From contig SVHB01000003.1 in assembly GCA_015056005.1 (NCBI GenBank), positions 2,283 to 66,282 of the forward strand: a stretch of 64,000 bases of DNA. Reading direction: 5' to 3'. A model generated the notes under the pieces. The model was not told the DNA's origin, did not search any database, and worked only from the letters and a program-made list of their open reading frames with translations. Position 1 is the stretch's first letter; each line of letters begins with the position of its first letter. Both the position numbers and the translations under genes were made by a program. Positions 29,845 through 63,900 of this stretch are shown here, piece by piece. The DNA is from Clostridiales bacterium. Its GTDB lineage: Bacteria; Bacillota; Clostridia; Christensenellales; UBA1750.

Positions 29845-31014
29845 ATGACCTTTAAGCGCGGGAATGCGTTTTCCGTGATAGCAAAGCCGGTGGGCTCAAA
29901 CTGCAACATGAACTGCAGGTATTGCTATTACCTTGAAAAGGGAAAGTTTTCTTCAAACGAGAAGCAGACCCGCATGAAGATGTCCCTGCTTGAAAAGCTC
30001 ATAAAGCAGACGATAAATTCCAATCCCGGCCCCGTCGTGTCCTTTGTCTGGCACGGCGGGGAACCTACGCTTGCGGGGCTTGATTTTTATAAGCAGGCGG
30101 TTTTGCTCCAGAAAAAATATATAAGACCGGGCATGGAGGTATGGAACAACCTTCAGACCAACGGCATGCTCATAAACGAGCAGTGGTGCAGATTTTTGAA
30201 GGAGAACCGCTTTGATGTGGGGCTTAGCATCGACGGGGATATGATCACTCACGATATGAACCGCATAGACAAGGGCGGAAATCCCACGCATGCAAAAGTC
30301 ATAAAAGCAGCTGAGCTTTTAAGCGAATACGGGATAAAGGCAGATCTTCTCTGCACCGTGAATGCGCAGACTCTAAAAGACCCGTTGGGCGTGTATGACG
30401 CTTTGCGAAAGCTCGATACCGGCTGGATACAGTTTATCCCCGTTATAGTGGTCGATGAAAACGGCAATGTCGACCCGATATCGGTCACGCCCGAGGGCTA
30501 CGGCGAATTTCTGATAAAGGTCTTTGATGAATGGGTAAGGCATGACCTTGGCAGGCTCGATGTGCAGCTTTTTGCCGAAATGGCAAAGATCAAAGCGGGC
30601 GGAACCGCCGGCGTTTGCTATCTTGCAAAGACCTGCGGCAGAGTGCTTGTAGCCGAGGAAGACGGAAGCATATATGCCTGCGATCATTTCGTCGACGGCG
30701 AGCACAGGCTGGGCAACCTTGCAGGCGGTGATATCGGCGAGTTTGCAAACAGCAGCTTCCAAACAAAGTTCGGGCTCGATAAGCGCGATAAATTGACAGG
30801 CGAATGCAAAAAATGCCCGTATCTGTCCTATTGCAGCGGCGGCTGCCCAAAGGACAGGTTTTCAAAGAGCATTGACGGCGAAGAAGGGCAGTATTACCTT
30901 TGCAAAGGGCTTAAAATGTTCTTTGAGCATGCCGACCCGATACTCAGGCAGATAATGCGCCTTAGCAGAAGGGGACTTTCGTCCGATAAGATAATGGAAG
31001 AACTGAATAAATAA
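29845..31014 (+). CDS. radical SAM/SPASM maturase of the anaerobic sulfatase-maturating enzyme (anSME) type
   Basis: CNMNCRYCYY radical-SAM motif and C-terminal Cys-rich SPASM region CKKCPYLSYCSGGCPKDRF. Confidence 0.8.
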   Translation: MTFKRGNAFSVIAKPVGSNCNMNCRYCYYLEKGKFSSNEKQTRMKMSLLEKLIKQTINSNPGPVVSFVWHGGEPTLAGLDFYKQAVLLQKKYIRPGMEVWNNLQTNGMLINEQWCRFLKENRFDVGLSIDGDMITHDMNRIDKGGNPTHAKVIKAAELLSEYGIKADLLCTVNAQTLKDPLGVYDALRKLDTGWIQFIPVIVVDENGNVDPISVTPEGYGEFLIKVFDEWVRHDLGRLDVQLFAEMAKIKAGGTAGVCYLAKTCGRVLVAEEDGSIYACDHFVDGEHRLGNLAGGDIGEFANSSFQTKFGLDKRDKLTGECKKCPYLSYCSGGCPKDRFSKSIDGEEGQYYLCKGLKMFFEHADPILRQIMRLSRRGLSSDKIMEELNK

Positions 31015-39585: not shown

Positions 39586-40002
39586 TTGACAAACATGACT
39601 GCAAGATCGGGCGGGAAACGCAACACGATCCAGCGTGCGATGATCTTTGAAGCTGTGCAGTCCCTGCATACGCATCCGACGGGCGAAGAGGTCTATGCCC
39701 TTGTCAGGTCAAAGTATCCGAGCATCAGTCTGGCGACCGTTTACCGCAACCTGAACACCCTTGCCGAGGAAGGGCAGATCAAGCGTATCTGCGTTCCCGG
39801 CGCTGCCGAGCGGTTTGATTTCAACACAAAACCGCATTATCATATCCGCTGCGAAAAATGCGGACAGTTTGCGGATGTGCCGCTTGAGTATGACGACAAG
39901 ATGGTGGAGCTTATCGCCCGGGCTACGGGCTACACTCTCCATCAGCAGGAAATGGTATTTACCGGCCTGTGCCCCGACTGCGCCAAAGAAGCGCTGTCCT
40001 GA
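39586..40002 (+). CDS. Fur-family transcriptional regulator (PerR-like)
   Basis: RNTIQRAMIFEAV..HPTGEEVY..ISLATVYRNLN winged helix, CEKCG and CPDC zinc motifs. The start is ambiguous (TTG 39586 or ATG 39595). Confidence 0.8.
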   Translation: MTNMTARSGGKRNTIQRAMIFEAVQSLHTHPTGEEVYALVRSKYPSISLATVYRNLNTLAEEGQIKRICVPGAAERFDFNTKPHYHIRCEKCGQFADVPLEYDDKMVELIARATGYTLHQQEMVFTGLCPDCAKEALS

Positions 40003-40050
40003 CCCAAACCGATAGATAAACTACAGCAAAAATTTATGGAGGATACGCAA

Positions 40051-40584
40051 ATGGAATTTAAGGGAAGCAAAACCGAACAAAATCTGTGGACTGCTTTTGC
40101 GGGCGAAAGCCAGGCAAGGAACAAGTACTCCTATTTTGCATCCGTAGCCAAGAAGGAAGGCTATGTTCAGATCGCAAACATCTTTGAAGAGACTTCCAAC
40201 AACGAAAAAGAGCATGCCAAGATGTGGTTCAAAGAGCTCAAGGGCATTGGCAACACCATGGAAAACTTAAAGTCCGCCGCAGAAGGCGAGAATTATGAGT
40301 GGACCGACATGTATGCCACCTTTGCAAAGGAAGCAAAGGAAGAGGGCTTTGACAGGCTGGCTGTTCTGTTCGAAATGGTAGCTAATATCGAAAAAGAGCA
40401 TGAGGAGCGCTATAACAAGCTTCTTGCCAACATCGAGGCGGGCGTAGTGTTTGAGCGCGACGGCGTTGTTGCATGGAAGTGCAATAACTGCGGTCACATC
40501 CACTTTGGCACCAAGGCTCCCGAGATGTGCCCCGTATGCGCACATCCCAAGGCTTATTTCGAGCTCAGGGCAGAAAACTACTAA
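40051..40584 (+). CDS. rbr: rubrerythrin
   Basis: [19 protein letters not shown] ferritin-like diiron motifs and C-terminal rubredoxin CNNCG...CPVC. GGAGGA RBS. Confidence 0.9.
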
Positions 40585-42878: not shown

Positions 42879-43315
42879 GAGAGAAGGCGCTGCCTTCTCT
42901 CAAACTCTCATCCGCCAGAGGATTTCATCCTCTGGACTCCTGATACTTTGATAGAGCACAGCAAGCTATGCGTCGATGGCGGCGGCAGGAATGCCGCCAT
43001 CGAGAAGCACAAAGAAGAAATATCAGCGCTCATGGCACAGCATTCCCTAAAAGCAATTACGCGTGACCCATACTTTACGGGTCACGCGTAAGCCATCGTA
43101 TAAAATTTACTGATCCCAAAAGCCGCGGGATCCAAGGGTTGCAAACCCTTGGTGGATGAGGGTGTGGGAGAAGGCGAAGCCTTCTTCCACGTAAATAGCT
43201 AAAGAATAAAATCTATCTGCCAGAGGAAGAAAAATCTTTGGGAGAAGGCGAAGCCTTCTTCCAAGAAAGAGAGCTCAAGAGGGCGCAGCCATCTCGAACG
43301 TACCCCTCCCCCCGG
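42878..43315. repeat. mosaic hairpin-rich intergenic repeat, copy D (contains both orientations)
   Basis: The right part matches copy A closely (43058-43092 matches 17372-17406 at 34 of 35 positions by eye; hairpin 43132-43152; 74-bp tandem with starts 43166 and 43240; tail ..cgaacgtacccc). The left arm 42880-42945 is an inverted, diverged copy of 43120-43185. Confidence 0.8.
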
Positions 43316-43319
43316 CGCC

Positions 43320-44516
43320 TCACAGAAGATCCAGCATCGCGGGGAAGGGCTCGAGGCTGCGGCGGAGGATGCCGTGCATATGCGCTATGGCGATACCGTA
43401 GTTTACGATGGGGACACCGCTTTCCTGAGCGCGGGAAATGCGGTGCTGCATTTCGGCTTCGTTGAGCATGCAGCCGCCGCAGTGAACGATGACCTTGTAA
43501 GGTGAAAGATCATCGGGGAACTCGCCGCCGGAGGTGAAGGAAAACTCGGGCTTTGCGCCTGAGAAATTCTCTATCCAGCCCGGCATCTTGACAGTGCCGA
43601 TGTCGTTGCATTGCCTGTGATGGGTGCAGCCTTCGGAGATCAGGACCTTGTCGCCGTCCTTTAGCTCGGACAGAGCCGCTGCGCCTTTGACAAGCTCGGC
43701 AAGATCGCCCTTGTATCGAGCAAAAAGAATGGAGAACGAGGTAAGAGGAACTGAGGGGGGCACGAGCTTTGACACCTTGCCGAACGCCTGCGAATCAGTG
43801 ATGACAAGGCGGGGCGGAGCTTTGAGCATTGAAAGCGTCTTTGGGATATCAACATCCTGGCAAGCCATAACGGTGCAATGGGAATCCAGTATATCGCGCA
43901 TGGTCTGCTGCTGGGGCAGTATAAGCCTTCCCTTGGGGGCGGATTCGTCGATAGGGATTACCAGCAAAACGAGATCATCGGGAGAAAGAAGATCGGATAC
44001 GATATGCTTTTCGGGCTTGCTGCCGGCGAAAGAACCAAGCTTTTCCTTGAAAGCGTCGATGTTCTTCTTTGAAAGCGCGCTGACGTATATGCCGTTTTCG
44101 GGCAGCTCGGGCTCAGAGGATAAAAGATCGCATTTGTTGTACGCGATAATGTAGGGCAACTTGCGGGAGATGAACATATCGATGAGCTCTGAGTCCGCCT
44201 TGCTCAGTCCCAAGCAGGAATCGACAACAAGCACGGCAATGTCGGTCTGCGCAAGCACGCGCTTTGCTTTTTTGACGCGCTTTTCGCCAAGCTCGCCCTC
44301 ATCGTCTATGCCGGGAGTGTCGATTATGACCACGGGACCTAAGGGTAGAAGCTCCATGGACTTGCGTACAGGGTCGGTGGTGGTGCCCTTGACTGCGGAA
44401 ACTACGGAAAGCTCCTGCCCGGTCACGGCGTTCACAAGGCTGGATTTGCCCACGTTGCGCAGGCCGAAAAAGGCGATATGCAGCCTGTCGGAGGAAGGTA
44501 CTGCGTTTAAGCTCAT
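43320..44516 (-). CDS. hydF: [FeFe]-hydrogenase H-cluster maturation GTPase HydF
   Basis: G-domain FGLRNVGKSSLVNAVTG..GTTTDPV..DTPG..NKCD. C-terminal CTHH-(about 46 aa)-HCGGC matches the HydF CxHx46-53HCxxC cluster motif. AAGGAGG RBS. Confidence 0.85.
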   Translation of the reverse strand: MSLNAVPSSDRLHIAFFGLRNVGKSSLVNAVTGQELSVVSAVKGTTTDPVRKSMELLPLGPVVIIDTPGIDDEGELGEKRVKKAKRVLAQTDIAVLVVDSCLGLSKADSELIDMFISRKLPYIIAYNKCDLLSSEPELPENGIYVSALSKKNIDAFKEKLGSFAGSKPEKHIVSDLLSPDDLVLLVIPIDESAPKGRLILPQQQTMRDILDSHCTVMACQDVDIPKTLSMLKAPPRLVITDSQAFGKVSKLVPPSVPLTSFSILFARYKGDLAELVKGAAALSELKDGDKVLISEGCTHHRQCNDIGTVKMPGWIENFSGAKPEFSFTSGGEFPDDLSPYKVIVHCGGCMLNEAEMQHRISRAQESGVPIVNYGIAIAHMHGILRRSLEPFPAMLDLL

Positions 44517-44528
44517 TTGTTTGCCTCC

Positions 44529-45650
44529 TTAATCAAGAACGAAATCGCCCGCCTGAGCGGAAGGCGCAAAGATGGAAGAAGCCTGATCGTCGGTCAGATC
44601 GATCGAGAACACTTCCTTGTAATATTTCTTGGTTTCTTCAATTATGTCGATATCGTTGAAAAGCTCGGGGTACGCGGTTTTTGCAAGCCATAAAAGGGTC
44701 ACGGGAGTGTCTGCGCCTGCGGTGTAGGAGCGGTAAATGCCAAGGGGCATCTTGTGTACGTTTTTGCTTTCAACAGCCGATACGGGGCTCCAGTCGTAGC
44801 TGCCGATGGTGTTGTTGAAAAGGTCATCGGGATAAGCTGTGGTGAAGTTGGTGATAAAGATGAGGGTGGGATCCCATGCGTATACCTGCTCAAGGTTTAC
44901 CGATACGGAATTGTCGGTCGCAAGCTCCTCGCCCACGTTTTTTGCGCCGATCGCGTCAGCCCACCACTGTCCGAAGAACTGCTTGCCCGAGGTCAGCATG
45001 GTGTTTTCGGTGTACTGGAAAAGGAAGAACACCTTTTCACGCTGAGAATCGGGGATATCTTTAACTCTGGACTGAACAAGGTCATAAATATCGTCGGAAT
45101 AGGCTTTCACGGCGTCGGCCTTGTCGCTTACGGAGAATACCTCTTCAAGAAGCGTGATCCAGTTGTTCAGGGTCTCAATGGCGTTGTATTCCCATTTGTT
45201 TACGGAAACGGCGATGGCTGCAAAGCCCGCGCTCCTGAGCTGTTCACCCTGATCGGGCTGGGAGGCGCTGTAGAAAACAACATCGGGCGAAAGCTTCATG
45301 AGCTCCTCGGTGTTTACGGAAGAACCGTTGATGTAGCCCGTCTGCGCCGAAAGTATCTCGGGATAAAGCTCACTTAAAATGCTGCTCTTTGCCGCGAGCA
45401 TGCTGGGGGGCGCGATGCCCACAAGCTTGTCGGCGGAATCAAAGAACATGGCGATAACGGAGGGCAGAGGATAAATGTCCATGACAGCAACGCGGTTTAC
45501 CTCATTTGGGACTTCTACTTCGTTGCCAAGATGGTCAACAACGGTGTGCGTGCCGGGTGACGCGCTTTCGATTTGAAAAGAACAGGCACCAAGGGTCAGG
45601 AGCATGGAAAGTACGAGAAAAACGGCAGTCAGTTTTTTGATAAGCTTCAT
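44529..45650 (-). CDS. ABC transporter substrate-binding lipoprotein, metal-chelate type (Peripla_BP_2-like)
   Basis: Signal sequence plus lipobox LTLGAC. The pattern VEVPNEVNRVAV.., NTEELMKLSPDVVF, EQVYAWDPTLIF is typical of siderophore/haem/B12-type binding proteins. Confidence 0.8.
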   Translation of the reverse strand: MKLIKKLTAVFLVLSMLLTLGACSFQIESASPGTHTVVDHLGNEVEVPNEVNRVAVMDIYPLPSVIAMFFDSADKLVGIAPPSMLAAKSSILSELYPEILSAQTGYINGSSVNTEELMKLSPDVVFYSASQPDQGEQLRSAGFAAIAVSVNKWEYNAIETLNNWITLLEEVFSVSDKADAVKAYSDDIYDLVQSRVKDIPDSQREKVFFLFQYTENTMLTSGKQFFGQWWADAIGAKNVGEELATDNSVSVNLEQVYAWDPTLIFITNFTTAYPDDLFNNTIGSYDWSPVSAVESKNVHKMPLGIYRSYTAGADTPVTLLWLAKTAYPELFNDIDIIEETKKYYKEVFSIDLTDDQASSIFAPSAQAGDFVLD

Positions 45651-45654
45651 ATAA

Positions 45655-46797
45655 TTACACCTCGCTTATGATAGTTTGTGCGTCTTTTGCAAGATCGGGG
45701 ATGGATCGGCGGTATATCCTGCCGGAGAAAGCCTCGTGAGGCAGGGGAATGAACTTTGCGCCTTCCGGAACTATGCGCCTGTACAGGGGATCCGCGATCA
45801 CGACCGATGCATCCTTTATAAAGTCAAGGATATAATCTTCGTCGTGCAAAACAGCGTCCTTATCCCTTAAAAGGGAAGGATCAAATTCGGTGGCGCAGGA
45901 GACTTTGGTTCCCTTGCCTGTTTCAAGCTCGATCGCCGATGCAAGGGAAAGGGAGCGCACTCCCTCGCCGATGATAACGATATCTCCCTCAAGAGCTGCA
46001 TCGTTTTTGCAGACGATGTTTTCGCAGCTGCTTACCGCCTTATCAAGAGCGCGCCTTAGCTGATCGGAGTATTTTTTTCCTGTCGGGGTACCGATGACAT
46101 AAGGAGTGCCGAAATTTTCAAAAAGCGTTTTCGCGGCCGAAAGACCTGCGGATGAGACAACGAGGTTCACATGTGCCGCGCCGATGTTTTTGATATCCTC
46201 GATATCACAACCCATGGCAAGAGAGCAGTTGATGGAAAAACCGCTGCTTTCAAGGAACGCGGCTATGGACTTGTCCTCGCCGTTTACGGAGAAATCAAGT
46301 GGGGTAAGCCCTAAAATATTTGCGCTCCTGTATTCGCTCTTTTTTACGTTTTTGTCCATAAAGCGGCGAACGATGCCGTCAAAGGCCATGGACGCACCCG
46401 AAATGTAGGTGCCCATGCCGCCGGTGGAAAAGCCGAGAGCCGGAATGCCTAAGCGGGCTTCAATAATATTTGCAGCTGCAGTATAGTCAAAGCCGGTCAT
46501 CATGGGTATGGGAGTACCTGCAAGGGCGATAAACTTCGGCTTGAGCTCATTTGCTGCGGTGATTATATCTAAAATGAGCTTTTCATCATCGCCCATGATC
46601 GCTTCCATTTCGGAAAGACCGGAAATGTATACCATGCTCTCCATGTCGTACCATCTGGGCTCATCGTGGGTGGTGTAGGTGGAATTGCAGCCTGAAGCGT
46701 CATGCATGACTACCATGCCGCCCAGCTCAAAAAGCGCCGAGCATACGCCGAAAACATCCGCAGAATAAGTGGAGATCACGCTTGAAGTCTGTCTCAT
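45655..46797 (-). CDS. nitrogenase component-1-type oxidoreductase subunit (NifK/N/BchB-like)
   Basis: VVMHDASGCNSTY (compare the HGxxGC motif of the family), three Rossmann-like segments, about 380 aa. ATG at 46797 overlaps the upstream stop (ATGA); an alternative GTG lies at 46809. Confidence 0.7.
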   Translation of the reverse strand: MRQTSSVISTYSADVFGVCSALFELGGMVVMHDASGCNSTYTTHDEPRWYDMESMVYISGLSEMEAIMGDDEKLILDIITAANELKPKFIALAGTPIPMMTGFDYTAAANIIEARLGIPALGFSTGGMGTYISGASMAFDGIVRRFMDKNVKKSEYRSANILGLTPLDFSVNGEDKSIAAFLESSGFSINCSLAMGCDIEDIKNIGAAHVNLVVSSAGLSAAKTLFENFGTPYVIGTPTGKKYSDQLRRALDKAVSSCENIVCKNDAALEGDIVIIGEGVRSLSLASAIELETGKGTKVSCATEFDPSLLRDKDAVLHDEDYILDFIKDASVVIADPLYRRIVPEGAKFIPLPHEAFSGRIYRRSIPDLAKDAQTIISEV

Positions 46798-48122
46798 ATA
46801 CAGCCGCACCCCATTCCTTTTATCTGGATCAGATTTCTCATGTCCTTTTCGTTTTCATATGCGTCGATCATAAGCGCACAAAGCTTTTCGATGGCTTCAA
46901 AATCGTACATTCCCCCGCCCTCGACAATGTTTACAAACCTGTTTGTGCCGCAAAAATGAGCCGCCTTCTGCCCTATTGCAAGAATACTGTTGTTTTCTTT
47001 TTCCGCCATGAAGCGCATGGAGGAATGGACCGTGGGATAAAGCTCAAGCTCCGGGTGATTTTCCTTCAGGTATTCAAAATCCGCCTTTTCAAGGGGAATG
47101 AAGGTGTCGGCATAAACGCGCTGCACGTTGAAACCGTGCTCCAAAAGCAGCCTTGCAAGCGCAAGGGGACGGGGCAGCGCTGTGTAGTCTATTGCAATCG
47201 GGGTATCGCCGATGATCTGTTTTGCATGCTCAAGCGCTTTTTCGCATTTTTGGCGAAGAAGGGCAAAATCGGGGAGCGGGCAGGAGAGCACTCCTGCAAG
47301 CTCTTTCAGGTTTTTCTCGATCTCATCGTAGGAAAGCGCGAAGGGCAGGAAAATATGCCTGCCGCCGAGCCTTTCTTCCAGCATATCGCCGCCTGCCTTT
47401 GCGGGGGGATAATAGGAGATGTAAAGCGAGGATTTTGCCATATCCTGATATTCCTCGTAGGTGGAGCACCTTGTGATCTCCATAAGGTTTTTCCCCGCAG
47501 AGCGGATCATTTTGACGAGCTGGCTTTCATCGTCGGTGGAAAAATCATTGCCGATTATGGATACCGTGTTTTCATCGATATTATTTGGCTTTAAGAGTGT
47601 ATAGAGCCTTGAACGCATGAGCTGATCAGGGGTGAGCCCGCTCTTTCTCATGATGGGGTTCATGTAGCAGTCGGTGAAATCGATATCGGGATGCATTTGC
47701 CTCAGCCTTTGGTATACCATGTCAAGGTCGCAGCCTGCAAAATGATGCACGCAGGAGGTGTATACAAGGATAGCGGGCGGACGTTTCTTAAGCTTTTTTA
47801 TTATGTCGGACACGCCGTCTACGATAAGGTCTTCAAGATCGCCGTCAAGCAGATTGTTTTCCTTTATCTCGACCGTGGAGAATCTGTCCTCCATACCGCA
47901 TTCTGCGGCTGTCAATACAACGCCTCTTAAACAGGACGCTGCGCAGACGAAGATCTCGTGAGCCTCAGGGATGAGCATGCCCACATGAACGATGTTCCAG
48001 GTGCCCCTTGCGGGGGAAGCATATTCAAGCCCCGAGCGGAAGGGTGAGGGGAAGGAAGCTTCTCCTATTATTCTTTTTGCGGCGGAAAGATCGCGGTCGT
48101 CGTTTACTCTTTTGAGCATCAT
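46794..48122 (-). CDS. nitrogenase component-1-type oxidoreductase subunit (NifD/E/BchN-like)
   Basis: Cys motifs [15 protein letters not shown] and [13 protein letters not shown] at spacings like the family's cluster ligands, about 441 aa. The start is ambiguous (48122 ATGA overlap, or 48134). Confidence 0.7.
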
Positions 48123-48877
48123 TCCACCCCGCATTCTTTGAGCATCGCCTTGGCGAGATTTCGGTATTCCTCAGCCATATCGCTTTGAGGGAACGCTTCA
48201 ACTACGGTTTTTGCAAGCGACTCGGCTTCCTGTACCGTTTCGCTTCTTGTGAGAGTGCCGATGACCTTGCTGCTTATATCGCCTGCCAGTTCTTCGACCT
48301 TTTCATCCTCGTTTTTGACGTTCCTGCGGTTTAAGATCAGACCGCCCAGCGCTGCATAGCCCCTGTCCTTAAAGCCGTTTACCGCCATTGCGATATTGGC
48401 AGCGGCGTGGATGGCCATGTTTTCGCCCGAGGTGATTATAAATACCTTATCCGCATAGCCGCTGCGCATCGGCATGGTAAAACCGCCGCAGACAACGTCG
48501 CCCAGAACGTCATAGATAACTACGTCGGGCTTATAGGTTTCGTAAGCGCCCTTTTCCTTCAGCTTTTCAAGCGCGGCGATGATGCCTCTGCCCGCGCAGC
48601 CAAGACCCGGGGTGGGGCCGCCGGCTTCCACGCATATAACGCCGCCGAAGCCTTCCCTTACCATATCGGAAAGCTCGAAAGCGTCCTTTTTTTCGCGGAC
48701 GAGATCAAGCACGGTGGTCATTTTTTCATAGCCGTGCAGAGCGTAGGTGGAATCCGCCTTGGGATCGCAGCCTATCTGCATGACCTTATAGCCCATCTGA
48801 GAAAGAGCTGCGGAAACATTGGAGACGGTGGTGGATTTGCCGATGCCGCCTTTTCCGTATACTGCGATTTTTATCAT
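48119..48877 (-). CDS. NifH/BchL/CfbC-family ATP-dependent reductase (iron-protein homologue)
   Basis: [15 protein letters not shown]-loop, CDPKADST switch I, and both [4Fe-4S] ligand contexts GLGCAGRG and LGDVVCGGF. The AAGGAGGA RBS lies in the end of hydE. Confidence 0.85.
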
Positions 48878-49930
48878 TTAAGCTTCCTCCTTTTTGTAAT
48901 CGCCCCTGCCTATGATGACCTCATAGCCGATCTCTTCCATCTGAGAGCGCAGAAGGGCGATGCCTTCCTTTGCCGATATTTCTGTGCCTGCTTTGTCGTT
49001 GTAGAGCATATACTTTTTGCGGACGGACATGGGCGAGAGGTTGGGCATAACTACATTGCAGCCAAAGAGCACTCCCAGCTTTCTTCCGTCCTGATCTGCG
49101 GTGCCAAGCGCTGTGGTGGCCGGCATCATGACATTTGGGAGCATTATGCGGCAAAGCGCCATCATAAGAAGGGTGGTATTCACGCTCCCGGAGGGCGCAT
49201 CGCCAAAGGGTGTATCCTTGTGGGGGATAAAGGGGCCTATACCCACCATCGCGGGGTCGAATTTCTGCATAAACACCATGTCATCGGCAAGGTGGGATGC
49301 GGTCTGGAAAGGTGTGCCCACCATGCAGCCGCAGCCGACCTGATAGCCTATGTCTTTTAAGTCATAAAGGCAGCGGATGCGGTTTTTAAGGCTCAGCTCC
49401 TTTGGGTGAATGAGGGAATAATGCTCCTCGTTTGCCGTTTCATGGCGCAGAAGGTATCTGTTCGCGCCCGCATCAAAAAGCTTTTTGTAGGAATCATAGC
49501 TTCTTTCACCAAGAGAGAGGGTGATGGCGCAGTCGGGATATTCCTCCTTTATGGATGATACGATATCGCACATCCTGTCGTCGGAAAAATAACCGTCCTC
49601 GCCGCCCTGAAGCACGAAGGTCCTGAAGCCGTTTTCATAGCCTTCCCTGCAGCAGGCAAGTATGTCCTGCTTTTCAAGGCGATAGCGCTGAGCGCAGGCA
49701 TTGCTTTTTCTGATGCCGCAGTAATAGCAGTCGTTTTTGCAGATGTTTGAAAATTCGACTATACCGCGGAAATATATCTTCCTGCCGAAAATTCTTTGTG
49801 ATATTTCCAAGGCATGAGTCTGAGCATGGGCAAGGTCGTCCGGAGTATAGGTTGAAATAATTTGCTCAAACTCCTTATGCGAAAGCTGTTTTTCGTCTTT
49901 GAGCTTGTTTATGAGTTCGATGTTTGTCAT
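48878..49930 (-). CDS. hydE: [FeFe]-hydrogenase H-cluster radical SAM maturase HydE
   Basis: EFSNICKNDCYYCGIR, VLQGGED, AGANRYLLRHETAN, MVGIGPFIPHKDTP, PATTALGT and CNVVMPN match Thermotoga HydE blocks as I recall them. Confidence 0.85.
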   Translation of the reverse strand: MTNIELINKLKDEKQLSHKEFEQIISTYTPDDLAHAQTHALEISQRIFGRKIYFRGIVEFSNICKNDCYYCGIRKSNACAQRYRLEKQDILACCREGYENGFRTFVLQGGEDGYFSDDRMCDIVSSIKEEYPDCAITLSLGERSYDSYKKLFDAGANRYLLRHETANEEHYSLIHPKELSLKNRIRCLYDLKDIGYQVGCGCMVGTPFQTASHLADDMVFMQKFDPAMVGIGPFIPHKDTPFGDAPSGSVNTTLLMMALCRIMLPNVMMPATTALGTADQDGRKLGVLFGCNVVMPNLSPMSVRKKYMLYNDKAGTEISAKEGIALLRSQMEEIGYEVIIGRGDYKKEEA

Positions 49931-50997
49931 TTGTGCTGCTCCGTATCCTTTTGATAGACTGTCTTGACGCTGACTGAGGGTATGAGCGATAGTCTGTGGG
50001 AGAGCTCCTCAATGCGGCTCTTTTTGCCGTCAAAGGTGGTGTTTATGATAAACACGTTCCTTTTTCTGTAGGGCATGCCCATCCTGCCGATTATTATATC
50101 GCCGTACTCATGCAGCAGGGCGTTGATATGATTTGCTTTTTCAAAATCGTCAGCGATTATGGTGATGGATGCGAGCGCGTCTTCATCATCGCTTTTCTCT
50201 ATGAGCGCGTTATCGTCGGAAAGCTTTAAGGGCACGACGTTTTTGAATACGCTGTGCGGGGTCTCGATCTCGCCTATTATCGCCTTGACTCCGAAGGTGC
50301 GCTCTATGTTTTCTTCGGTCAGAACCTGAGAAGTGGAACCGAATATCGTTTTGCCGCCCGAGAGTATGAGCGATCTGTCCGCTCTTTGCAGGGCGTGCTC
50401 CGGGTAATGGGTGTTGAATATGCAGCATATGCCGTCTGAGGCAAGCCTGCTTATGGTGTTAAGAACTATGAGCTGATTTTTGAAATCGAGGTTGGATTCG
50501 GGCTCATCCAGAATGAGTATTTGGGGGTCGGATACAAGCGCTCTTGCTATCAGCACCATCTGAAGCTCGCCGCCGCTCATTTTGCTCAGGGGCTTATCAC
50601 GAAGGTGGGCTATGGAAAGCTCTTCAAGCACGCTTTCGGCCTTTTCGATATCATGCTTCCCGGGTGAGGAGAAAAGCGAAAGGTTGCTGCTCCTGCCGAT
50701 CAGCACTGTCTCAAGCGCGCTGTAGGAGGTCGCGGCACCCCTTGCCTGAGGTACGTAGCTCATTATGCCCCAGAGCTTTTTTTCTCCCATTCTGCGGATA
50801 TCGCTTCCGTCGATAAGGCTCTTTCCGTCCTTCCATTTGAGCATGCCCGTCATGCACCTGAGCAGTGTGGTCTTGCCTGCGCCGTTGGGGCCCAATATAG
50901 CCAGCAGTTCGCCCGAGGAAACGGAAAAGTTTACGTCCGAAAAAACATCTTTCTTGTTGTCGTAGGAGAATCTGCCGCCTTTTACTTCAAGTATCAC
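49927..50997 (-). CDS. ABC transporter ATP-binding protein (FepC/FecE-type) with C-terminal TM1266-type ACT-like domain
   Basis: GPNGAGKTTLL, LSGGELQ and ILILDEPESNLD motifs. The last 85 aa or so align without gaps to the product of 52017-52274 (LHEYG..IIGRMG.PYR...VKT.Y). A GTG at 50997 gives a GTGA overlap and 9-nt spacing from GGGAGG; an alternative TTG lies at 51006. Confidence 0.85.
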   Translation of the reverse strand: MILEVKGGRFSYDNKKDVFSDVNFSVSSGELLAILGPNGAGKTTLLRCMTGMLKWKDGKSLIDGSDIRRMGEKKLWGIMSYVPQARGAATSYSALETVLIGRSSNLSLFSSPGKHDIEKAESVLEELSIAHLRDKPLSKMSGGELQMVLIARALVSDPQILILDEPESNLDFKNQLIVLNTISRLASDGICCIFNTHYPEHALQRADRSLILSGGKTIFGSTSQVLTEENIERTFGVKAIIGEIETPHSVFKNVVPLKLSDDNALIEKSDDEDALASITIIADDFEKANHINALLHEYGDIIIGRMGMPYRKRNVFIINTTFDGKKSRIEELSHRLSLIPSVSVKTVYQKDTEQHK

Positions 50998-52013
50998 AGC
51001 TGCCAACCTCCCGATTTTCTCATAAGGTAAATGAAGAACGGTGCGCCGATGATCGCGGTGAGTATGGATATCGGGATATCGGCTGCGGAAACAGACCTTG
51101 CAATTGTGTCAACGATCAGCATGAACGATGCGCCGAAGCTTATCGATGCGGGAACAAGCGACATATGGTTGCTGGAAAACTTCATTCTGCACATATGCGG
51201 CACAAGAAGACCCACCCAGCCGACCTGACCGCACATGGATACGCAGGATGCGGTCATGAGCGTTGCGCATATAACGGTCACGGCGCGAAGCCTTTTGATG
51301 TTTACGCCCGAGGATCTTGCCTCATCCTCGGACAGCGGCAGAAGGTTCATTCTCCATCTGAGAAGGAAGAGCACGCATATCCCAAGCAATATGGGCGGTG
51401 CGCCGTAGATAAGGCTTTCATAGCTTGCATTGCTCAAACTGCCCATGAGCCAGTAGGTGATCGCGGGAAGCTGGGACTCTGCGTCGGCCACGAACTTTAT
51501 GAGCGATACGAGCGCCGAGAACAGCGAACCTATCATGATGCCCGAAAGCACCACGGAAGAAAGCCCTTTGCCCCTGCCTGAGCCAGCGGCCCATGTCATC
51601 AAAACTGCGGCTGCGCCGAAAATGAAGGAGGTGATCTGTATTCCGAGCATCTTAAAGCCTATCAGTATGCCAAACGCCGCGCCGAAGCTTGCGCCGCTGG
51701 CAACGCCTAAGGTGTCGGGAGTGGCAAGCGGGTTTGCAAAAAGGCTCTGGAACGCGCAGCCCGCGCAGGAAAGCCCCATGCCCGCAAGCAGCGCCAGAAG
51801 TATTCTGGGTATGCGGATGTTGACTATGGTGCTCATGACCATTTTATCGACAAGCTGCTGCCCGGTTATCTTTGATATTATCGCTTTTATAGTATCAACA
51901 GGGGTTATCCAGATCCTGCCCGAGCCAAGAGCGATGATCGAAAGGACGATGGGAAATACGATAAGAAAAATTATCCATGGTGCGGAAAGCCTTCCGCCGC
52001 TGCTGTTTTTCAT
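50994..52013 (-). CDS. ABC transporter permease, FecCD family
   Basis: LLAGMGLSCAGCAFQSLFANPLATPDTLGVASGASFGAA and multiple TM segments typical of FecCD/BtuC. Confidence 0.85.
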   Translation of the reverse strand: MKNSSGGRLSAPWIIFLIVFPIVLSIIALGSGRIWITPVDTIKAIISKITGQQLVDKMVMSTIVNIRIPRILLALLAGMGLSCAGCAFQSLFANPLATPDTLGVASGASFGAAFGILIGFKMLGIQITSFIFGAAAVLMTWAAGSGRGKGLSSVVLSGIMIGSLFSALVSLIKFVADAESQLPAITYWLMGSLSNASYESLIYGAPPILLGICVLFLLRWRMNLLPLSEDEARSSGVNIKRLRAVTVICATLMTASCVSMCGQVGWVGLLVPHMCRMKFSSNHMSLVPASISFGASFMLIVDTIARSVSAADIPISILTAIIGAPFFIYLMRKSGGWQL

Positions 52014-52016
52014 AGC

Positions 52017-52274
52017 TTATGCCTTTGTGATAACATTGGAGTATGCGGTCTTGACCGTCACGCCCTCGAGCGTTCCGATCTTTCCCGAAAGCGCCGCGAT
52101 GGTGTTCTGGGGAGCGTCGATGGCGATAGAGATGATGTTTACCTTCTTCTCTCGGTAGGGGATGCCCATCCTGCCGATTATGAACATGCCGTATTCATGA
52201 AGGATGGAGTTGAGCTGCTCAACCGAGTTTGGATTTTCCACTATAATGCTGATGACCGCTACTCTTGTTTCCAT
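52017..52274 (-). CDS. TM1266-type small ACT-like protein (family annotated as putative iron-only hydrogenase system regulator)
   Basis: 85 aa starting METRVAVISIIVEN after GAAAGGAAG. LHEYGMFIIGRMGIPYR core. The family is known for clustering with hydE/F/G. Confidence 0.7.
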   Translation of the reverse strand: METRVAVISIIVENPNSVEQLNSILHEYGMFIIGRMGIPYREKKVNIISIAIDAPQNTIAALSGKIGTLEGVTVKTAYSNVITKA

Positions 52275-52301
52275 TTTATATCTTCCTTTCGGTATTTTGG
52301 T

Positions 52302-52340
52302 AAAATAAAAATCGCTGTACCCATAAAAAGGTACAGCGAT
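52302..52340 (-). terminator. intrinsic terminator inside the 5' leader of the hyd/nif-like operon (attenuator)
   Basis: The minus strand reads atcgctgtacc-tttttat-ggtacagcgat followed by ttttatttt, 27 nt upstream of the first start codon. No upstream same-strand gene exists for it to terminate. Confidence 0.55.
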
Positions 52341-52429
52341 AAAGCATGACAAATATATCATGATAAAGCCTGTTCGCCGCACCTTTCAGTCAGAAACCTT
52401 TCGGGATCTTTATGTCAGGCACCTGTATC

Positions 52430-52458
52430 ATTATACTATATTTTCTCGTTTATGTAAA
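52430..52458 (-). promoter_or_regulatory. sigma-70-type promoter of the hyd/nif-like operon
   Basis: The minus strand reads TTTACA-17 nt-TATAAT (tttacataaacgagaaaatatagtataat). Confidence 0.6.
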
Positions 52459-61514: not shown

Positions 61515-61554
61515 CTTGGATATCCCGATTACAGTAAAGAGAGGATAAGTGAAA

Positions 61555-63900
61555 ATGACACTGCGTGACCTTAAAACAGGGCAGAGCGCCGTTATAACCG
61601 CTGTGGGCGGGCAGGGCGCGCTAAGGCAGCACTTCCTTGATATGGGTGTTATTCCCGGAGCTGAGGCTACGCTCATACAGCTTGCTCCCATGGGAGACCC
61701 GATGGAGATAAGAATACACGGCTACGAGCTGACACTGCGCGTTGCCGATGCCGAGCAGATAAGCGTTGAGCCTTTGCCGGAAAACGCAAAGCATTCTGCT
61801 TTTGAATATGATCCTTCAAAGCGCAAGGAACATCCGGGCTTCGGCGAAGGCGGAAAATACCACACAAAGGCCGATGAGAATCCCCTTCCCAAGGATACGA
61901 CCCTTACCTTTGCGCTGGCGGGCAACCAGAACTGCGGCAAAACGACTCTTTTCAATCAGCTAACCGGTTCCAATCAGCATGTGGGCAATTTCCCCGGGGT
62001 CACCGTTGACAGAAAGGACGGCGTTATAAAGGGCTATCCCAATACCCTTGTGACCGACCTTCCCGGTATATATTCAATGTCTCCCTACAGCGCCGAGGAG
62101 ATCGTTTCCCGCGATTTTATCATAAACGAAAAACCAAAGTGCATCATAAACATTGTTGATGCTACCGTTATAGAGCGCAACCTCTATCTTTCCCTGCAGC
62201 TCATGGACCTTGATGTGCCCATGGTGCTTGCGCTCAACATGATGGATGAGGTGCGCGGCAACGGCGGATCAATAAGGATAAACGAGATGGAGGATATGCT
62301 GGGTTTGCCCGTGGTTCCCATCTCCGCTTCAAAGGGCGAGGGCATTGATGAGCTGATCCGGCATGCCGTTCACGTGGCGCAGTATCAGGAGCGCCCGGGC
62401 AGGCTCGATTTCTGTGACAAGGATGCAAACGGCGGCGCTGTCCACCGCTGCCTGCACGGCATCATGGATCTGATCGAGGACCATGCAAAGAGAGCCCGGA
62501 TCCCCGTGAGGTTTGCCGCAAGCAAGCTGGTCGAGGGCGATAAGATCATACTTGATGCACTTGAACTGAGCGAAAACGAAAAGGAAATGCTCGAGCACAT
62601 CATCTGCCAGATGGAGGAAGAGCGCGGGCTCGACCGTCAGGCCGCAATTGCGGATATGCGCTTTGCGTTCATCGAAAATCTGGTAGAGAAAACCGTTGTA
62701 AAGCCCAAAGAGAGCAAGGAACACGAGCGCAGCAGAAAAATCGATAAAATCCTTACAGGAAAATACACTGCGATCCCCACCTTTGTGCTCATCATGGCGC
62801 TGGTGTTTTACCTGACATTCAATGTGATCGGCGCATGGCTGCAGGGGCTGCTTGAGGGCGGTATTGAGCTGTTCACGGGCGCAGTGGATTCTGCTTTGAC
62901 AGCGCTTGATATAAACCATGCACTGCACAGCCTTATCATCGACGGCATATTCGGCGGCGTCGGCAGCGTTTTGAGCTTCCTGCCCGTCATAGTTGTACTT
63001 TTCTTCTTCCTGTCCATACTTGAAGACAGCGGCTATATGGCAAGAATCGCATTTGTTATGGATAAGCTGCTCAGGAAGATCGGTCTTTCGGGCAGGAGCA
63101 TAGTGCCCATGCTCATGGGCTTTGGCTGCACCGTTCCGGGCGTTATGGCAAGCAGGACCCTTCCTTCCGAACGCGACAGAAAGATGACCATAATGCTCAC
63201 TCCCTTTATGAGCTGCACGGCAAAGCTGCCCATTTACGGCTTCTTTGCAGATGCTTTCTTCCCCGAGCATTCGGGGCTGATAATGGTCGGGCTTTATTTC
63301 CTCGGTATCATCGTCGGCGTTCTTGTGGCGCTTTTATCCAGAGTGGCAATGTTTAGAGGCAGCGCGGTGCCCTTTGTAATGGAGCTGCCAAACTACCGCA
63401 TGCCCGGGGTCAAAAACGTGGCAAGGCTCCTTTGGGATAAAGCAAAGGATTTTCTGCACAGGGCGTTCACCGTTATCTTTATTGCAACTATAGTGATCTG
63501 GTTTTTGCAGACCTTTGATCTTAGGTTCAACATGGTCGAAGATTCTCAGCAGAGCATCCTTGCACTGCTTGCGGGTGTTATCGCTCCCATTTTTGGGCCC
63601 TTGGGCTTTGGCGACTGGCGCATTTCCACCGCGCTCATCACAGGCTTTATGGCAAAGGAAAGCGTTGTTTCCACCCTCAGCGTGCTCTTTGGCAGCACCG
63701 AAGCTCTGCTTGCCACCATGCCCCATGTGGCTGCTGCGGCGCTTCTGGTCTTCTGCCTGCTCTATACCCCCTGCGTTGCGGCCGTAGCTTCCATCAAGCG
63801 TGAGCTGGGCGGCAAATGGGCACTGGGCATCGTTATCGGTCAGTGCGCCATCGCATGGATATGCGCCTTCATCACAAGGCTGATAGGGCTCATGTTCTGA
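61555..63900 (+). CDS. feoB: ferrous iron transporter, FeoA-FeoB fusion
   Basis: N-terminal FeoA SH3-like domain (LRDLKTGQSAVITAV..GVIPGAEATLIQLAPMGDPMEIRI), then FeoB G-domain ALAGNQNCGKTTLFN..GVTVD and a polytopic membrane domain. Confidence 0.9.
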   Translation: MTLRDLKTGQSAVITAVGGQGALRQHFLDMGVIPGAEATLIQLAPMGDPMEIRIHGYELTLRVADAEQISVEPLPENAKHSAFEYDPSKRKEHPGFGEGGKYHTKADENPLPKDTTLTFALAGNQNCGKTTLFNQLTGSNQHVGNFPGVTVDRKDGVIKGYPNTLVTDLPGIYSMSPYSAEEIVSRDFIINEKPKCIINIVDATVIERNLYLSLQLMDLDVPMVLALNMMDEVRGNGGSIRINEMEDMLGLPVVPISASKGEGIDELIRHAVHVAQYQERPGRLDFCDKDANGGAVHRCLHGIMDLIEDHAKRARIPVRFAASKLVEGDKIILDALELSENEKEMLEHIICQMEEERGLDRQAAIADMRFAFIENLVEKTVVKPKESKEHERSRKIDKILTGKYTAIPTFVLIMALVFYLTFNVIGAWLQGLLEGGIELFTGAVDSALTALDINHALHSLIIDGIFGGVGSVLSFLPVIVVLFFFLSILEDSGYMARIAFVMDKLLRKIGLSGRSIVPMLMGFGCTVPGVMASRTLPSERDRKMTIMLTPFMSCTAKLPIYGFFADAFFPEHSGLIMVGLYFLGIIVGVLVALLSRVAMFRGSAVPFVMELPNYRMPGVKNVARLLWDKAKDFLHRAFTVIFIATIVIWFLQTFDLRFNMVEDSQQSILALLAGVIAPIFGPLGFGDWRISTALITGFMAKESVVSTLSVLFGSTEALLATMPHVAAAALLVFCLLYTPCVAAVASIKRELGGKWALGIVIGQCAIAWICAFITRLIGLMF

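Follow-up and report, generated by a model that had tools for sequence, protein, structure and literature searches.

Contig SVHB01000003.1 of a gut or rumen Clostridiales bacterium (assembly GCA_015056005.1) carries a cluster of nine open reading frames (ORFs) that places a nitrogenase-like reductase and a metal-chelate-type importer among genes for hydrogenase maturation. The cluster lies within the 64,000-nucleotide (nt) stretch analyzed here (positions 2,283 to 66,282 of the forward strand of the contig; hereafter, the window, whose numbering we use), where the nine ORFs run head to tail on the minus strand from position 52274 to position 43320. They encode, in order, a TM1266-family protein, a FecCD permease, an ATP-binding cassette (ABC) ATPase, the maturase HydE, a NifH-like protein, two component-1-like subunits (D and K), a lipoprotein binding protein, and the maturase HydF. 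An initial annotation, made from the sequence, had proposed this layout; all of its ORFs are present, and Pfam and NCBIfam searches bear out the identities of all nine genes. The NCBI annotation of these exact proteins gives HydE, HydF, "nitrogenase," and "Fe3+-citrate ABC transporter substrate-binding protein."

The genes are tightly packed. A gap of 3 nt separates the TM1266 and permease genes, the permease and ATPase genes overlap by GTGA (50994 to 50997), and ATGA overlaps join the ATPase gene to hydE (49927 to 49930), the nifH-like gene to D (48119 to 48122), and D to K (46794 to 46797). The TAA of hydE abuts the ATG of the nifH-like gene (48878/48877), and gaps of 4 nt and 12 nt lie on either side of the binding-protein gene, toward K and hydF, respectively. 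A base-by-base reading matches the junctions listed in the initial annotation exactly, and the overlapping and adjacent junctions uphold its claim of translational coupling. A purine-rich ribosome-binding site precedes most starts. Upstream of the first gene, a promoter-like site (TTTACA-17 nt-TATAAT; 52430 to 52458, minus strand) agrees with the consensus at 11 of 12 positions and is the top match between 42700 and 52800, as a consensus match only. The leader of approximately 150 nt between this site and the first gene contains an intrinsic terminator (52311 to 52340, minus strand), a 12-bp stem followed by TTTTATTTTA, and a consensus scan places another intrinsic terminator, with a 16-bp stem, at the end of the operon (43057 to 43091, minus strand). 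Internal promoters or terminators had been named in the initial annotation as features that might split the unit; in the same type of scan, internal promoter-like sites occur at chance level (9 observed versus 8.6 expected), and terminator-like hairpins on the coding strand are short and weak. Given the tight junctions, the best promoter match upstream, the terminator at the end, and internal sites at chance level, the nine genes are very likely co-transcribed as one unit from the promoter-like site to the strong terminator. The promoter sequence ATAATGATA looks like a Fur box; since the other loci lack it, this reading was discarded.

Both maturases were taken to be bona fide in the initial annotation. 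Indeed, HydE, a radical S-adenosylmethionine (SAM) maturase of 350 residues (48878 to 49930), and HydF, a GTPase scaffold of 398 residues (43320 to 44516), score well above their equivalog cut-offs (TIGR03956, 539.1 bits versus 254.6, and TIGR03918, 551.7 bits versus 325.55), and the sequence blocks quoted for them are present. Among solved proteins, HydE matches Thermotoga maritima HydE (E = 5.7e-77), followed by PylB (3.9e-24) and HydG (2.7e-12). Its translation contains the blocks CKNDCYYCGIR, AGANRYLLRHETAN, MVGIGPFIPHKDTP, and PATTALGT, and the CX3CX2C cysteines C64, C68, and C71 (CKNDCYYC) are invariant in 39/39 sequences. HydF matches solved HydF (PDB 5LAD, E = 5.4e-102) and all three expected domains, namely the GTPase, dimerization, and tetramerization domains (PF01926, PF18128, and PF18133); C297, C303, C346, and C349 are invariant in 28/28 sequences, and the GCTHH and HCGGC motifs are present. 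The equivalog scores of both proteins equal in quality those of HydE and HydF from hydG operons. In a HydE tree, nif-linked and hydG-linked copies separate in part, and HydF copies intermix; both patterns are confounded by taxonomy.

The first gene encodes a TM1266-family, ACT-like protein of 85 residues (52017 to 52274; TIGR03959, 116.6 bits versus a cut-off of 60.8) that matches PDB 2NZC (E = 7.8e-13) and starts with the ATG at 52274, behind a GGAAG ribosome-binding site. A longer ORF from a GTG at 52382 (121 residues, adding 52275 to 52382) would cross the leader terminator and is unlikely to be real. The invariant polar residues of the family are R35, Y40, D53, K75, Y78, and N22, a combination of Arg, Lys, Tyr, Asn, and Asp in keeping with an anionic ligand.

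All three parts of a type II (BtuCD/FecCD-type) importer are encoded in the operon. The FecCD-family permease (339 residues; 50994 to 52013; FecCD, 279.8 bits versus 26.5) has its best partial matches in BtuC, FecC, and FhuB, each below the equivalog cut-off. The ATPase (356 residues from a GTG start; 49927 to 50997; ABC_tran, 113.4 bits versus 25) has a GGGAGG ribosome-binding site 9 nt upstream, and the two proteins together resemble the BtuCD/FecCDE/heme type. What the initial annotation described as an ACT-like tail on the ATPase is confirmed as a TM1266-like C-terminal domain (residues 276 to 346; 49960 to 50172; PF21699, 68.9 bits versus 27), 41.6% identical to the free-standing TM1266 protein. 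In ModE and ModC, the same molybdate-binding fold controls transcription and transport; the TM1266 fold, present here as a free protein and as an ATPase tail, recalls that pair and may be its analog.

The third part of the importer is a Peripla_BP_2 lipoprotein of 373 residues (44529 to 45650; 55.9 bits versus a cut-off of 27.5) whose lipobox cysteine, C23, is kept in 65/67 sequences. Its best solved match is a periplasmic binding protein without a stated ligand (4OVK, E = 2.4e-44). Further matches are MolA (HI_1472; E = 4.7e-18), a known molybdate/tungstate binder, and Helicobacter pylori CeuE, deposited as nickel binding (E = 6.3e-14); the similarities to MolA and CeuE are modest, at approximately 55 to 69 bits. 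TM0189 is also among the solved relatives, and siderophore binders such as FeuA are marginal matches. By these similarities, a small metal complex or an oxyanion would fit as the ligand at least as well as a siderophore or macrocycle.

The NifH-like protein (252 residues; 48119 to 48877), a predicted ATPase and [4Fe-4S] electron donor, matches Fer4_NifH with 299.4 bits against a cut-off of 25. Its P-loop (GKGGIGKS) and both cluster cysteines, C94 and C130, are invariant in 77/77 sequences, in line with the initial annotation, which had noted that they are retained. The protein falls below the equivalog cut-offs for NifH (327 bits versus 394), CfbC (321 versus 402), BchL (205 versus 345), and BchX (167 versus 331). 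Its top solved relative is MarH (E = 4.1e-74), with NifH only marginally behind.

The partners of this protein are far more divergent. D (442 residues; 46794 to 48122) is deep-branching and matches Oxidored_nitro with 59.5 bits (cut-off, 28.6), and K (380 residues; 45655 to 46797) does so with 103.6 bits. A phmmer search with D against solved structures returned nothing significant (NifE, E = 0.37, with ankyrin noise above it), and the relationship of D to the nitrogenase superfamily is visible only by profiles and fold comparison. A profile of the D family matches NifE (7.6e-15), VnfD (2.8e-9), MarD (7.1e-9), NifD (6e-5), and BchN (8e-5). The AlphaFold model of D (pLDDT 83, pTM 0.85) has a component-1 fold, for which NifN and NifE rank first and NifK, MarD, and BchN come close behind, all with TM scores of approximately 0.6 and 12 to 17% identity. 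K is closest to NifE (E = 4.9e-21 by profile), clostridial NifD, and BchB.

Across the whole D family, whose clades are 26 to 67% identical, just C64 and C124 are invariant. The close clade keeps five cysteines (C60, C64, C124, C152, and C441), which are not the P-cluster/FeMo-co set. C124 aligns with the "TC" cluster ligand of NifE and NifD ("NTC" in NifE), and the single invariant cysteine of K (C37, within HDASGC) aligns with that of HGAQGC in NifN, so that the NifEN-type interface site, comprising the equivalents of NifE C62 and C124 and NifN C44, is conserved. The position of the NifE-type L-cluster cysteine (NifE C250/NifD Cys275) is occupied by a residue other than cysteine in D. From these alignments, the cysteines of D and K are predicted to bind one [4Fe-4S] cluster between the two subunits, the pattern known from NifEN, DPOR, and CfbD, and not a P-cluster plus a complex cofactor.

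The initial annotation had named membership of a characterized clade as a ground for rejecting its view, and the nif-like proteins fall inside none: all NCBIfam equivalog cut-offs are missed, and D finds no significant solved match by phmmer. The D/K pair is not a true Nif, Vnf, or Anf nitrogenase (NifD, 28.5 bits versus a cut-off of 653; ligands of the P-cluster and FeMo-co absent), nor is it DPOR or COR (BchB, 58.2 bits versus 490; BchY, 19.3 versus 425) or CfbCD (TIGR03282, 22.3 bits versus 268.4; D and K are two distinct genes). MAR and ISR were rejected as well, given the absence of P-like and L-like ligands, a profile match to MarD of 7.1e-9, and neighbors that are neither marB-like nor of sulfur metabolism; ISR was compared by description only. 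Judged by profile and fold, D and K belong to a deep nitrogenase-like clade outside Nif, DPOR, COR, and CfbD that is weakly similar to solved MAR.

Two further features of the D family deserve mention. D ends in KGMGCGCI (46794 to 46820, minus strand), in which C441 is kept in 80/80 and C439 in 72/80 members of the close, hyd-linked clade. This CxC tail is absent from the distant Treponema/Lachnospiraceae clade, whose members end in GLVV; the model has low confidence here, and the segment may be a flexible metal-handling tail. The representative library also holds unusually long D relatives (P0135, 850 residues; P0172, 888; P0171, 1010; P0225, 873; P0148, 729), which are probably D-K or NifH-D fusions. 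Fusions of this sort were mentioned for some Firmicutes and Archaea by Dos Santos et al. in 2012 (PMC3464626).

No hydG, hydA, nifB, nifE, or nifN had been seen in the window, and the searches agree. Scans of other long ORFs of the window, 20 with Pfam and 5 with NCBIfam, revealed neither HydG nor HydA, tblastn of the 64-kb window with a confirmed HydG query gave no match, and nifB, nifE, and nifN were found neither among the scanned window ORFs nor among recurrent flank genes of the 81 related loci described below, most of whose flank ORFs are unannotated. The other scanned ORFs encode glycoside hydrolases, peptidases, transporters, a PerR-like regulator, rubrerythrin, a FeoAB fusion, and an anaerobic sulfatase maturase, the last being the sole other radical SAM gene among them (29845 to 31014). 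The PerR/Fur-family regulator adjoins the rubrerythrin gene (39586 to 40584, plus strand) approximately 3 kb from the operon end, and the FeoA-FeoB fusion, a ferrous iron transporter, lies approximately 9 kb upstream of the operon (61549 to 63900, plus strand).

Relatives of D number more than 3,198 in a collection of 5.8 billion proteins. There are 881 clusters of the family at 50% identity, and at least 567 species genomes encode a relative. Carriers belong to the Lachnospiraceae, Oscillospiraceae, Anaerovoracaceae/Mogibacterium, Clostridiaceae, and Peptococcaceae and include cultured Intestinibacter bartlettii. To survey gene neighborhoods, we searched with a close alignment of nine D sequences and retained the best 80 loci, all 55 to 67% identical; the tblastn survey comprises 81 D-anchored loci (L001 to L081), 50 of them with full flanks. 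The survey proposed in the initial annotation finds the linkage conserved. The full set of nine genes, in unchanged order, is found at 19 of the 50 fully covered loci, and since their flanks differ, the genes have not come together by chance. TM1266 is present in 48 of the 50, the importer in 46, hydE in 29, and hydF in 22, always in the same order. Thus hydE and hydF, which had been presented as set parts of the unit, are not: both are missing from 12 loci, hydE occurs without hydF in 10, and hydF without hydE in 3. Four loci consist of TM1266-NifH-D-K only, and two lack TM1266. TM1266, the importer, and NifH-D-K thus make up the constant core, with hydE and hydF facultative and always in the same slots.

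Clustering of 592 flank ORFs yielded no further conserved neighbor in more than 11 of the 81 loci, and no hydG, hydA, ferredoxin, or tetrapyrrole genes recur in these flanks. A HypB-like G3E GTPase gene lies approximately 3.6 kb upstream in 7 Anaerovoracaceae/Mogibacterium loci. A distant D/K clade (26 to 33% identity), found in Treponema parvum and one Lachnospiraceae genome, has the layout NifH-D-K-binding protein(s)-FecCD-ATPase and is without TM1266, hyd genes, the ATPase tail, and the leader motif described below. Because this clade has the importer and no hyd genes, the link between the nif-like genes and the importer is older than the link to the hyd genes.

The leaders of these operons share a further element. 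In 32 of 56 related leaders, we found a conserved motif of approximately 45 nt, AU-CUGA-[4-bp stem]-RAAA...UUGA-[stem]-RAAG-AYRCRG, in which all four inner stem pairs covary (CACC/GGUG, CGCC/GGCG, UAUC/GAUA, CGUC/GACG, CACG/CGUG, and others). In a set chosen by requiring at least 3 of 4 stem pairs, with 96% of stem cells paired, the observed value was attained in none of 500 shuffles. A stem pair left free in the search pattern is U-A in 34, C-G in 22, U-G in 3, and C-A in 0 of 59 non-redundant metagenome leaders. Neither the window leader nor two strong copies (L007, 2038 to 2094; L005, 5716 to 5772) has a relevant match in Rfam 15 at E <= 10. A covariance model of the motif (R1) gives 38 matches with E < 0.01 in 1.27 Mb, all on the coding strand and directly upstream of these operons, including I. 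bartlettii loci without TM1266. The sole match of this model in the 64-kb window is a weak, degenerate copy in the operon leader (52369 to 52430, minus strand; 11.2 bits). It retains CUGACA...UGAAAG followed by GGUGCGGCGA, and a 24-nt insert replaces the apical part. GGUGCGGCGA can pair with UCGCUGUACC, within the 5' arm of the leader terminator, and several related leaders permit the equivalent pairing; it is plausible that the 3' tail of the motif and this arm form an antiterminator, with binding of a ligand or protein favoring termination. As a candidate, the motif could be a new riboswitch or an attenuator bound by a protein.

A search of metagenome contigs with the exact motif pattern retrieved 83 loci; six soil matches, which have long gaps and lack hyd genes, are probably spurious and were excluded. 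Elsewhere the motif heads operons that combine genes of one common pool in several ways: TM1266-hydE-hydG-hydF (HydG, 926 bits versus 312); hydF-hydE-hydG; TM1266-hydE-NifH-D-K-hydF, without the importer; TM1266-hydF-NifH-D'-K', in which D' and K' are of the distant clade; NifH-D'-K' alone; TM1266-FecCD-ATPase-binding protein(-hydF), without nif-like genes; and the full nine-gene type. The importer can belong to the regulon alone, since two motif-led loci encode TM1266-FecCD-ATPase-binding protein and no nif-like genes (L097 and L129, the latter with hydF and with an ATPase that lacks the TM1266-like tail). That the same leader RNA heads hydE-hydG-hydF, nif-like-only, and importer-only operons points to one common regulon for the nif-like, importer, and canonical hydE-hydG-hydF operons. 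At one locus (L047), two motif copies (5594 to 5648 and 5969 to 6025; 51.8 and 40.6 bits) flank the TM1266 gene. Two other copies, one followed by phage-like structural genes (L100, 411 to 466; 35.8 bits) and one by a lipoprotein resembling a binding protein (L089, 1383 to 1438; 41.5 bits), may be regulon outliers or contig artifacts.

The motif-led operons also bear on the relationship between hydG and the nif-like genes. In the window operon nifHDK lies between hydE and hydF, the position that hydG takes in canonical motif-led operons. Among 17 long non-redundant motif-led operons, hydG is present in 5, nifHDK in 8, and both in 0, and hydG was not found within 10 kb of any of the 81 D-anchored loci or in the window. 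Such exclusivity is compatible with substitution of hydG by nifHDK and equally with hydG being encoded elsewhere. In many of these genomes hydE and hydF, absent from the cluster, must themselves be encoded elsewhere, and hydG may be too.

We tentatively favor the reading, possible rather than probable at this stage, in which the nif-like and importer modules serve an H-cluster maturation regulon as an accessory for metal supply or assembly. The strongest evidence is the leader RNA held in common with canonical hyd operons, which suggests a functional tie of the nif-like and importer genes to H-cluster maturation. A role in active-site cluster assembly was likewise proposed from genome context in 2012 (PMC3464626). 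In such a scheme, the lipoprotein and FecCD permease would bring a metal species into the cell, an iron chelate or some other small metal complex being most likely. Low-potential electrons would then be transferred, at the expense of ATP, from the NifH-like protein to a NifEN-type [4Fe-4S] cluster between D and K, and D/K would reduce or hold the imported species, making the metal available to HydE, HydF, and a HydG encoded elsewhere. The two TM1266-like domains and the leader RNA may match import and maturase expression to one signal, in a manner resembling ModE and ModC. Iron is favored as the metal because the H-cluster and its maturases are iron rich and iron delivery to HydG limits in vitro maturation (PMC12501116).

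Several observations weigh against this scheme. The named-ligand relatives of the binding protein bind molybdate/tungstate or a nickel complex and not a siderophore or heme, and with MolA and the nickel-binding CeuE as nearest named-ligand proteins, iron as the imported metal is a guess. Direct Fe2+ binding by TM1266 is unlikely, as its alignment contains no invariant His or Cys. On the RNA side, the window's own motif copy is weak (E = 1.8), and the pairing proposed for the antiterminator does not stand out from its control, the longest complementary run between motif tail and downstream region being 7.54 versus 7.13 in shuffled sequence. Loci of Anaerovoracaceae/Mogibacterium (L025, L027, L029, L033, L034, L042, and similar ones) have no leader motif or terminator, and a short promoter-like element, TGTTAAAAT/GATAGAAT, lies directly upstream instead. 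Further, nifHDK occurs behind the leader RNA without the importer at four loci (L108, L115, L088, and L132), so the substrate of D/K need not be the imported compound. Co-expression of hydrogenase maturases with an iron-starvation importer would also be physiologically odd.

Other explanations have to be set beside the accessory module. It is unlikely, in our judgment, that importer and reductase are an independent nutrient cassette that processes an external tetrapyrrole, siderophore, or corrinoid and is merely co-located or co-regulated with hydE and hydF. The distant D/K clade of T. parvum and the Lachnospiraceae genome, with the same importer and no hyd genes, TM1266, or leader motif, fits such a cassette, as do the many clusters without hydE and hydF, the simple [4Fe-4S]-type ligands of D/K, which are like those of tetrapyrrole reductases, and the relatives in methanogens and Desulfitobacterium that occur with ABC transporters (PMC3464626). 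This view has to contend with the linkage of three hyd-associated families (TM1266, HydE, and HydF), TM1266 being present in 48/50 loci; with the same leader RNA at the head of canonical hydE-hydG-hydF operons; with nifHDK that accompanies hyd genes yet lacks the importer; and with a binding protein nearer to MolA and nickel CeuE than to heme, B12, or siderophore binders. The resemblance to MolA and CeuE (4.7e-18 and 6.3e-14) could instead mean that molybdate, tungstate, or a nickel complex is imported, reduced, and inserted into an Fe-S precursor in the style of NifH/NifEN, giving a product other than the H-cluster that is possibly handled by HydE and HydF. We consider this highly improbable. 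It would accord with the proximity of D and K to NifE and NifN by profile and fold and with the anion-suited invariant Arg, Lys, Tyr, Asn, and Asp of TM1266. The cellular activity of the T. maritima Fe-hydrogenase, moreover, was reportedly found in 1991 to depend on tungsten, an effect left unexplained. However, D lacks the L-cluster/FeMo-co cysteine, no nifB-like gene is present, HydE and HydF are equivalogs of the ordinary kind, and the resemblance itself is modest (approximately 55 to 69 bits), with the closest structure lacking a stated ligand.

The slot that nifHDK occupies raises another alternative, in which the iron synthon that normally reaches HydE from HydG is instead made or delivered by NifH/D/K, whether or not the importer takes part. 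We strongly doubt this HydG-independent route. The exact coincidence of nifHDK with the hydG slot of motif-led operons, the failure of the two to share an operon (5 versus 8 of 17, both in 0), and the lack of hydG within 10 kb of the 81 D-anchored loci and in the window speak for such a route; yet hyd genes are often scattered in Firmicutes, so that hydG may lie elsewhere, there is no known chemistry for supply of CO and CN by a nitrogenase-like enzyme, and HydE and HydF score as well as their counterparts from hydG operons, suggesting the usual substrate. In its fullest form, in which HDK replaces HydG as a NifEN-like scaffold, fed by the importer in many genomes, that supplies the iron block under the control of the leader RNA and TM1266, the idea is likewise improbable; if true, it would provide a second, tyrosine-lyase-independent entry into H-cluster biosynthesis. 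Among the roles suggested in the initial annotation, reduction of an imported chelate finds some support in the distant D/K clade, which has the same importer type without hyd genes, and the leader RNA together with nifHDK in the hydG slot gives new support to a HydG-independent or auxiliary iron route and to a different cofactor on the HydF scaffold.

The initial annotation also held that this arrangement had never been described. That is not so: Dos Santos et al. noted, in 2012, the linkage to hydrogenase maturation proteins in one sentence and the co-location of nitrogenase-like genes with ABC transporters (PMC3464626). What is new here is the set order of the genes with its variants, the size of the family, the duplication of TM1266, the precedence of the nif-importer link over the hyd link, the mutual exclusion of nifHDK and hydG from the slot, and the leader regulon. 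In the literature, we found no functional study of TM1266, of nitrogenase-like genes linked to hydE and hydF, of nitrogenase-like proteins acting with heme, siderophores, or corrinoids, or of a riboswitch for Hyd genes. A hyd neighborhood analysis from the Broderick laboratory highlighted ammonia-lyases and not nif-like or importer genes, and missing components of H-cluster maturation are still coming to light, namely the glycine-cleavage H-protein, ammonia-lyases, and the iron carrier NfuA. A 2026 review lists nitrogenase-like Groups IV-D, IV-E, and VI as uncharacterized, does not mention HydE, HydF, or this context or discuss the present clade, and counts the assignment of function to uncharacterized nitrogenase-like clades among the greatest challenges of the field (PMC13474568). 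Should the modules feed H-cluster assembly, a pathway for which HydE, HydF, and HydG are considered sufficient would gain an ATP-driven step and its own metal supply. Among Clostridia of the gut and rumen, the nif-like D family is very common, with at least 567 species genomes. Both the leader RNA and the duplicated TM1266 domain give experimenters direct access to the signal or substrate, and cultured carriers such as I. bartlettii, Coprococcus catus, and Dorea longicatena make the question directly testable.

Among known systems, NifEN with NifH is closest to the window proteins by profile (NifE for both D and K), by fold, by its interface cysteines, and by its NifH-type ATPase partner. It differs in that identity is 12 to 17%, and here there is no equivalent of NifE C250 and no nifB, nifD, or nifK, and a type II ABC importer and hyd maturases are linked. 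The "NifHEN-like" clade of Firmicutes and methanogens, whose members include proteins of C. catus GD/7 and D. longicatena, Mlab_1039/1040, and Dhaf_1539/1540 (PMC3464626), has a D/E-like subunit with two conserved cysteines, a K/N-like subunit with one, and a reported association with hydrogenase maturation proteins and ABC transporters, as seen here. By that description, we infer that D and K of the window belong to this clade; the 2012 account gives no gene order, TM1266, RNA element, or survey.

DPOR (BchLNB), COR (BchXYZ), and CfbCD likewise pass electrons from an ATP-driven NifH-like donor to an interface [4Fe-4S] cluster, with no complex P- or M-type cluster; however, the equivalog scores of the window proteins are far below cut-off, no tetrapyrrole biosynthesis genes lie nearby, and CfbD is a homodimer, whereas the window system has two distinct subunits. 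MarBHDK and IsrBHDK belong to the same superfamily, and the NifH-like protein is most similar to MarH, but here there are no P-like or L-like ligands and no marB-like or sulfur-metabolism neighbors, and the match to MarD is only 7.1e-9. Groups IV-D and IV-E are mostly predicted to bind P-like and L-like clusters (PMC13474568), so the missing ligands argue against membership, on a comparison by description. Group VI NflHDK of Elusimicrobia, compared by context alone, differs in that the window operon has only HydE and no radical SAM/B12 suite. The importer is like the MolBC-A (HI1470-72) and H. pylori CeuE-type importers in its FecCD permease, ABC ATPase, and Peripla_BP_2 protein, with modest similarity and, unlike them, an extra TM1266-like C-terminal domain on the ATPase. 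Finally, canonical hydE-hydG-hydF operons differ from the window operon in that, in the latter, nifH-D-K and the binding-protein gene take the position of hydG and the importer lies upstream of hydE; the two have in common TM1266 as the first gene, the leader motif, and the quality of HydE and HydF.

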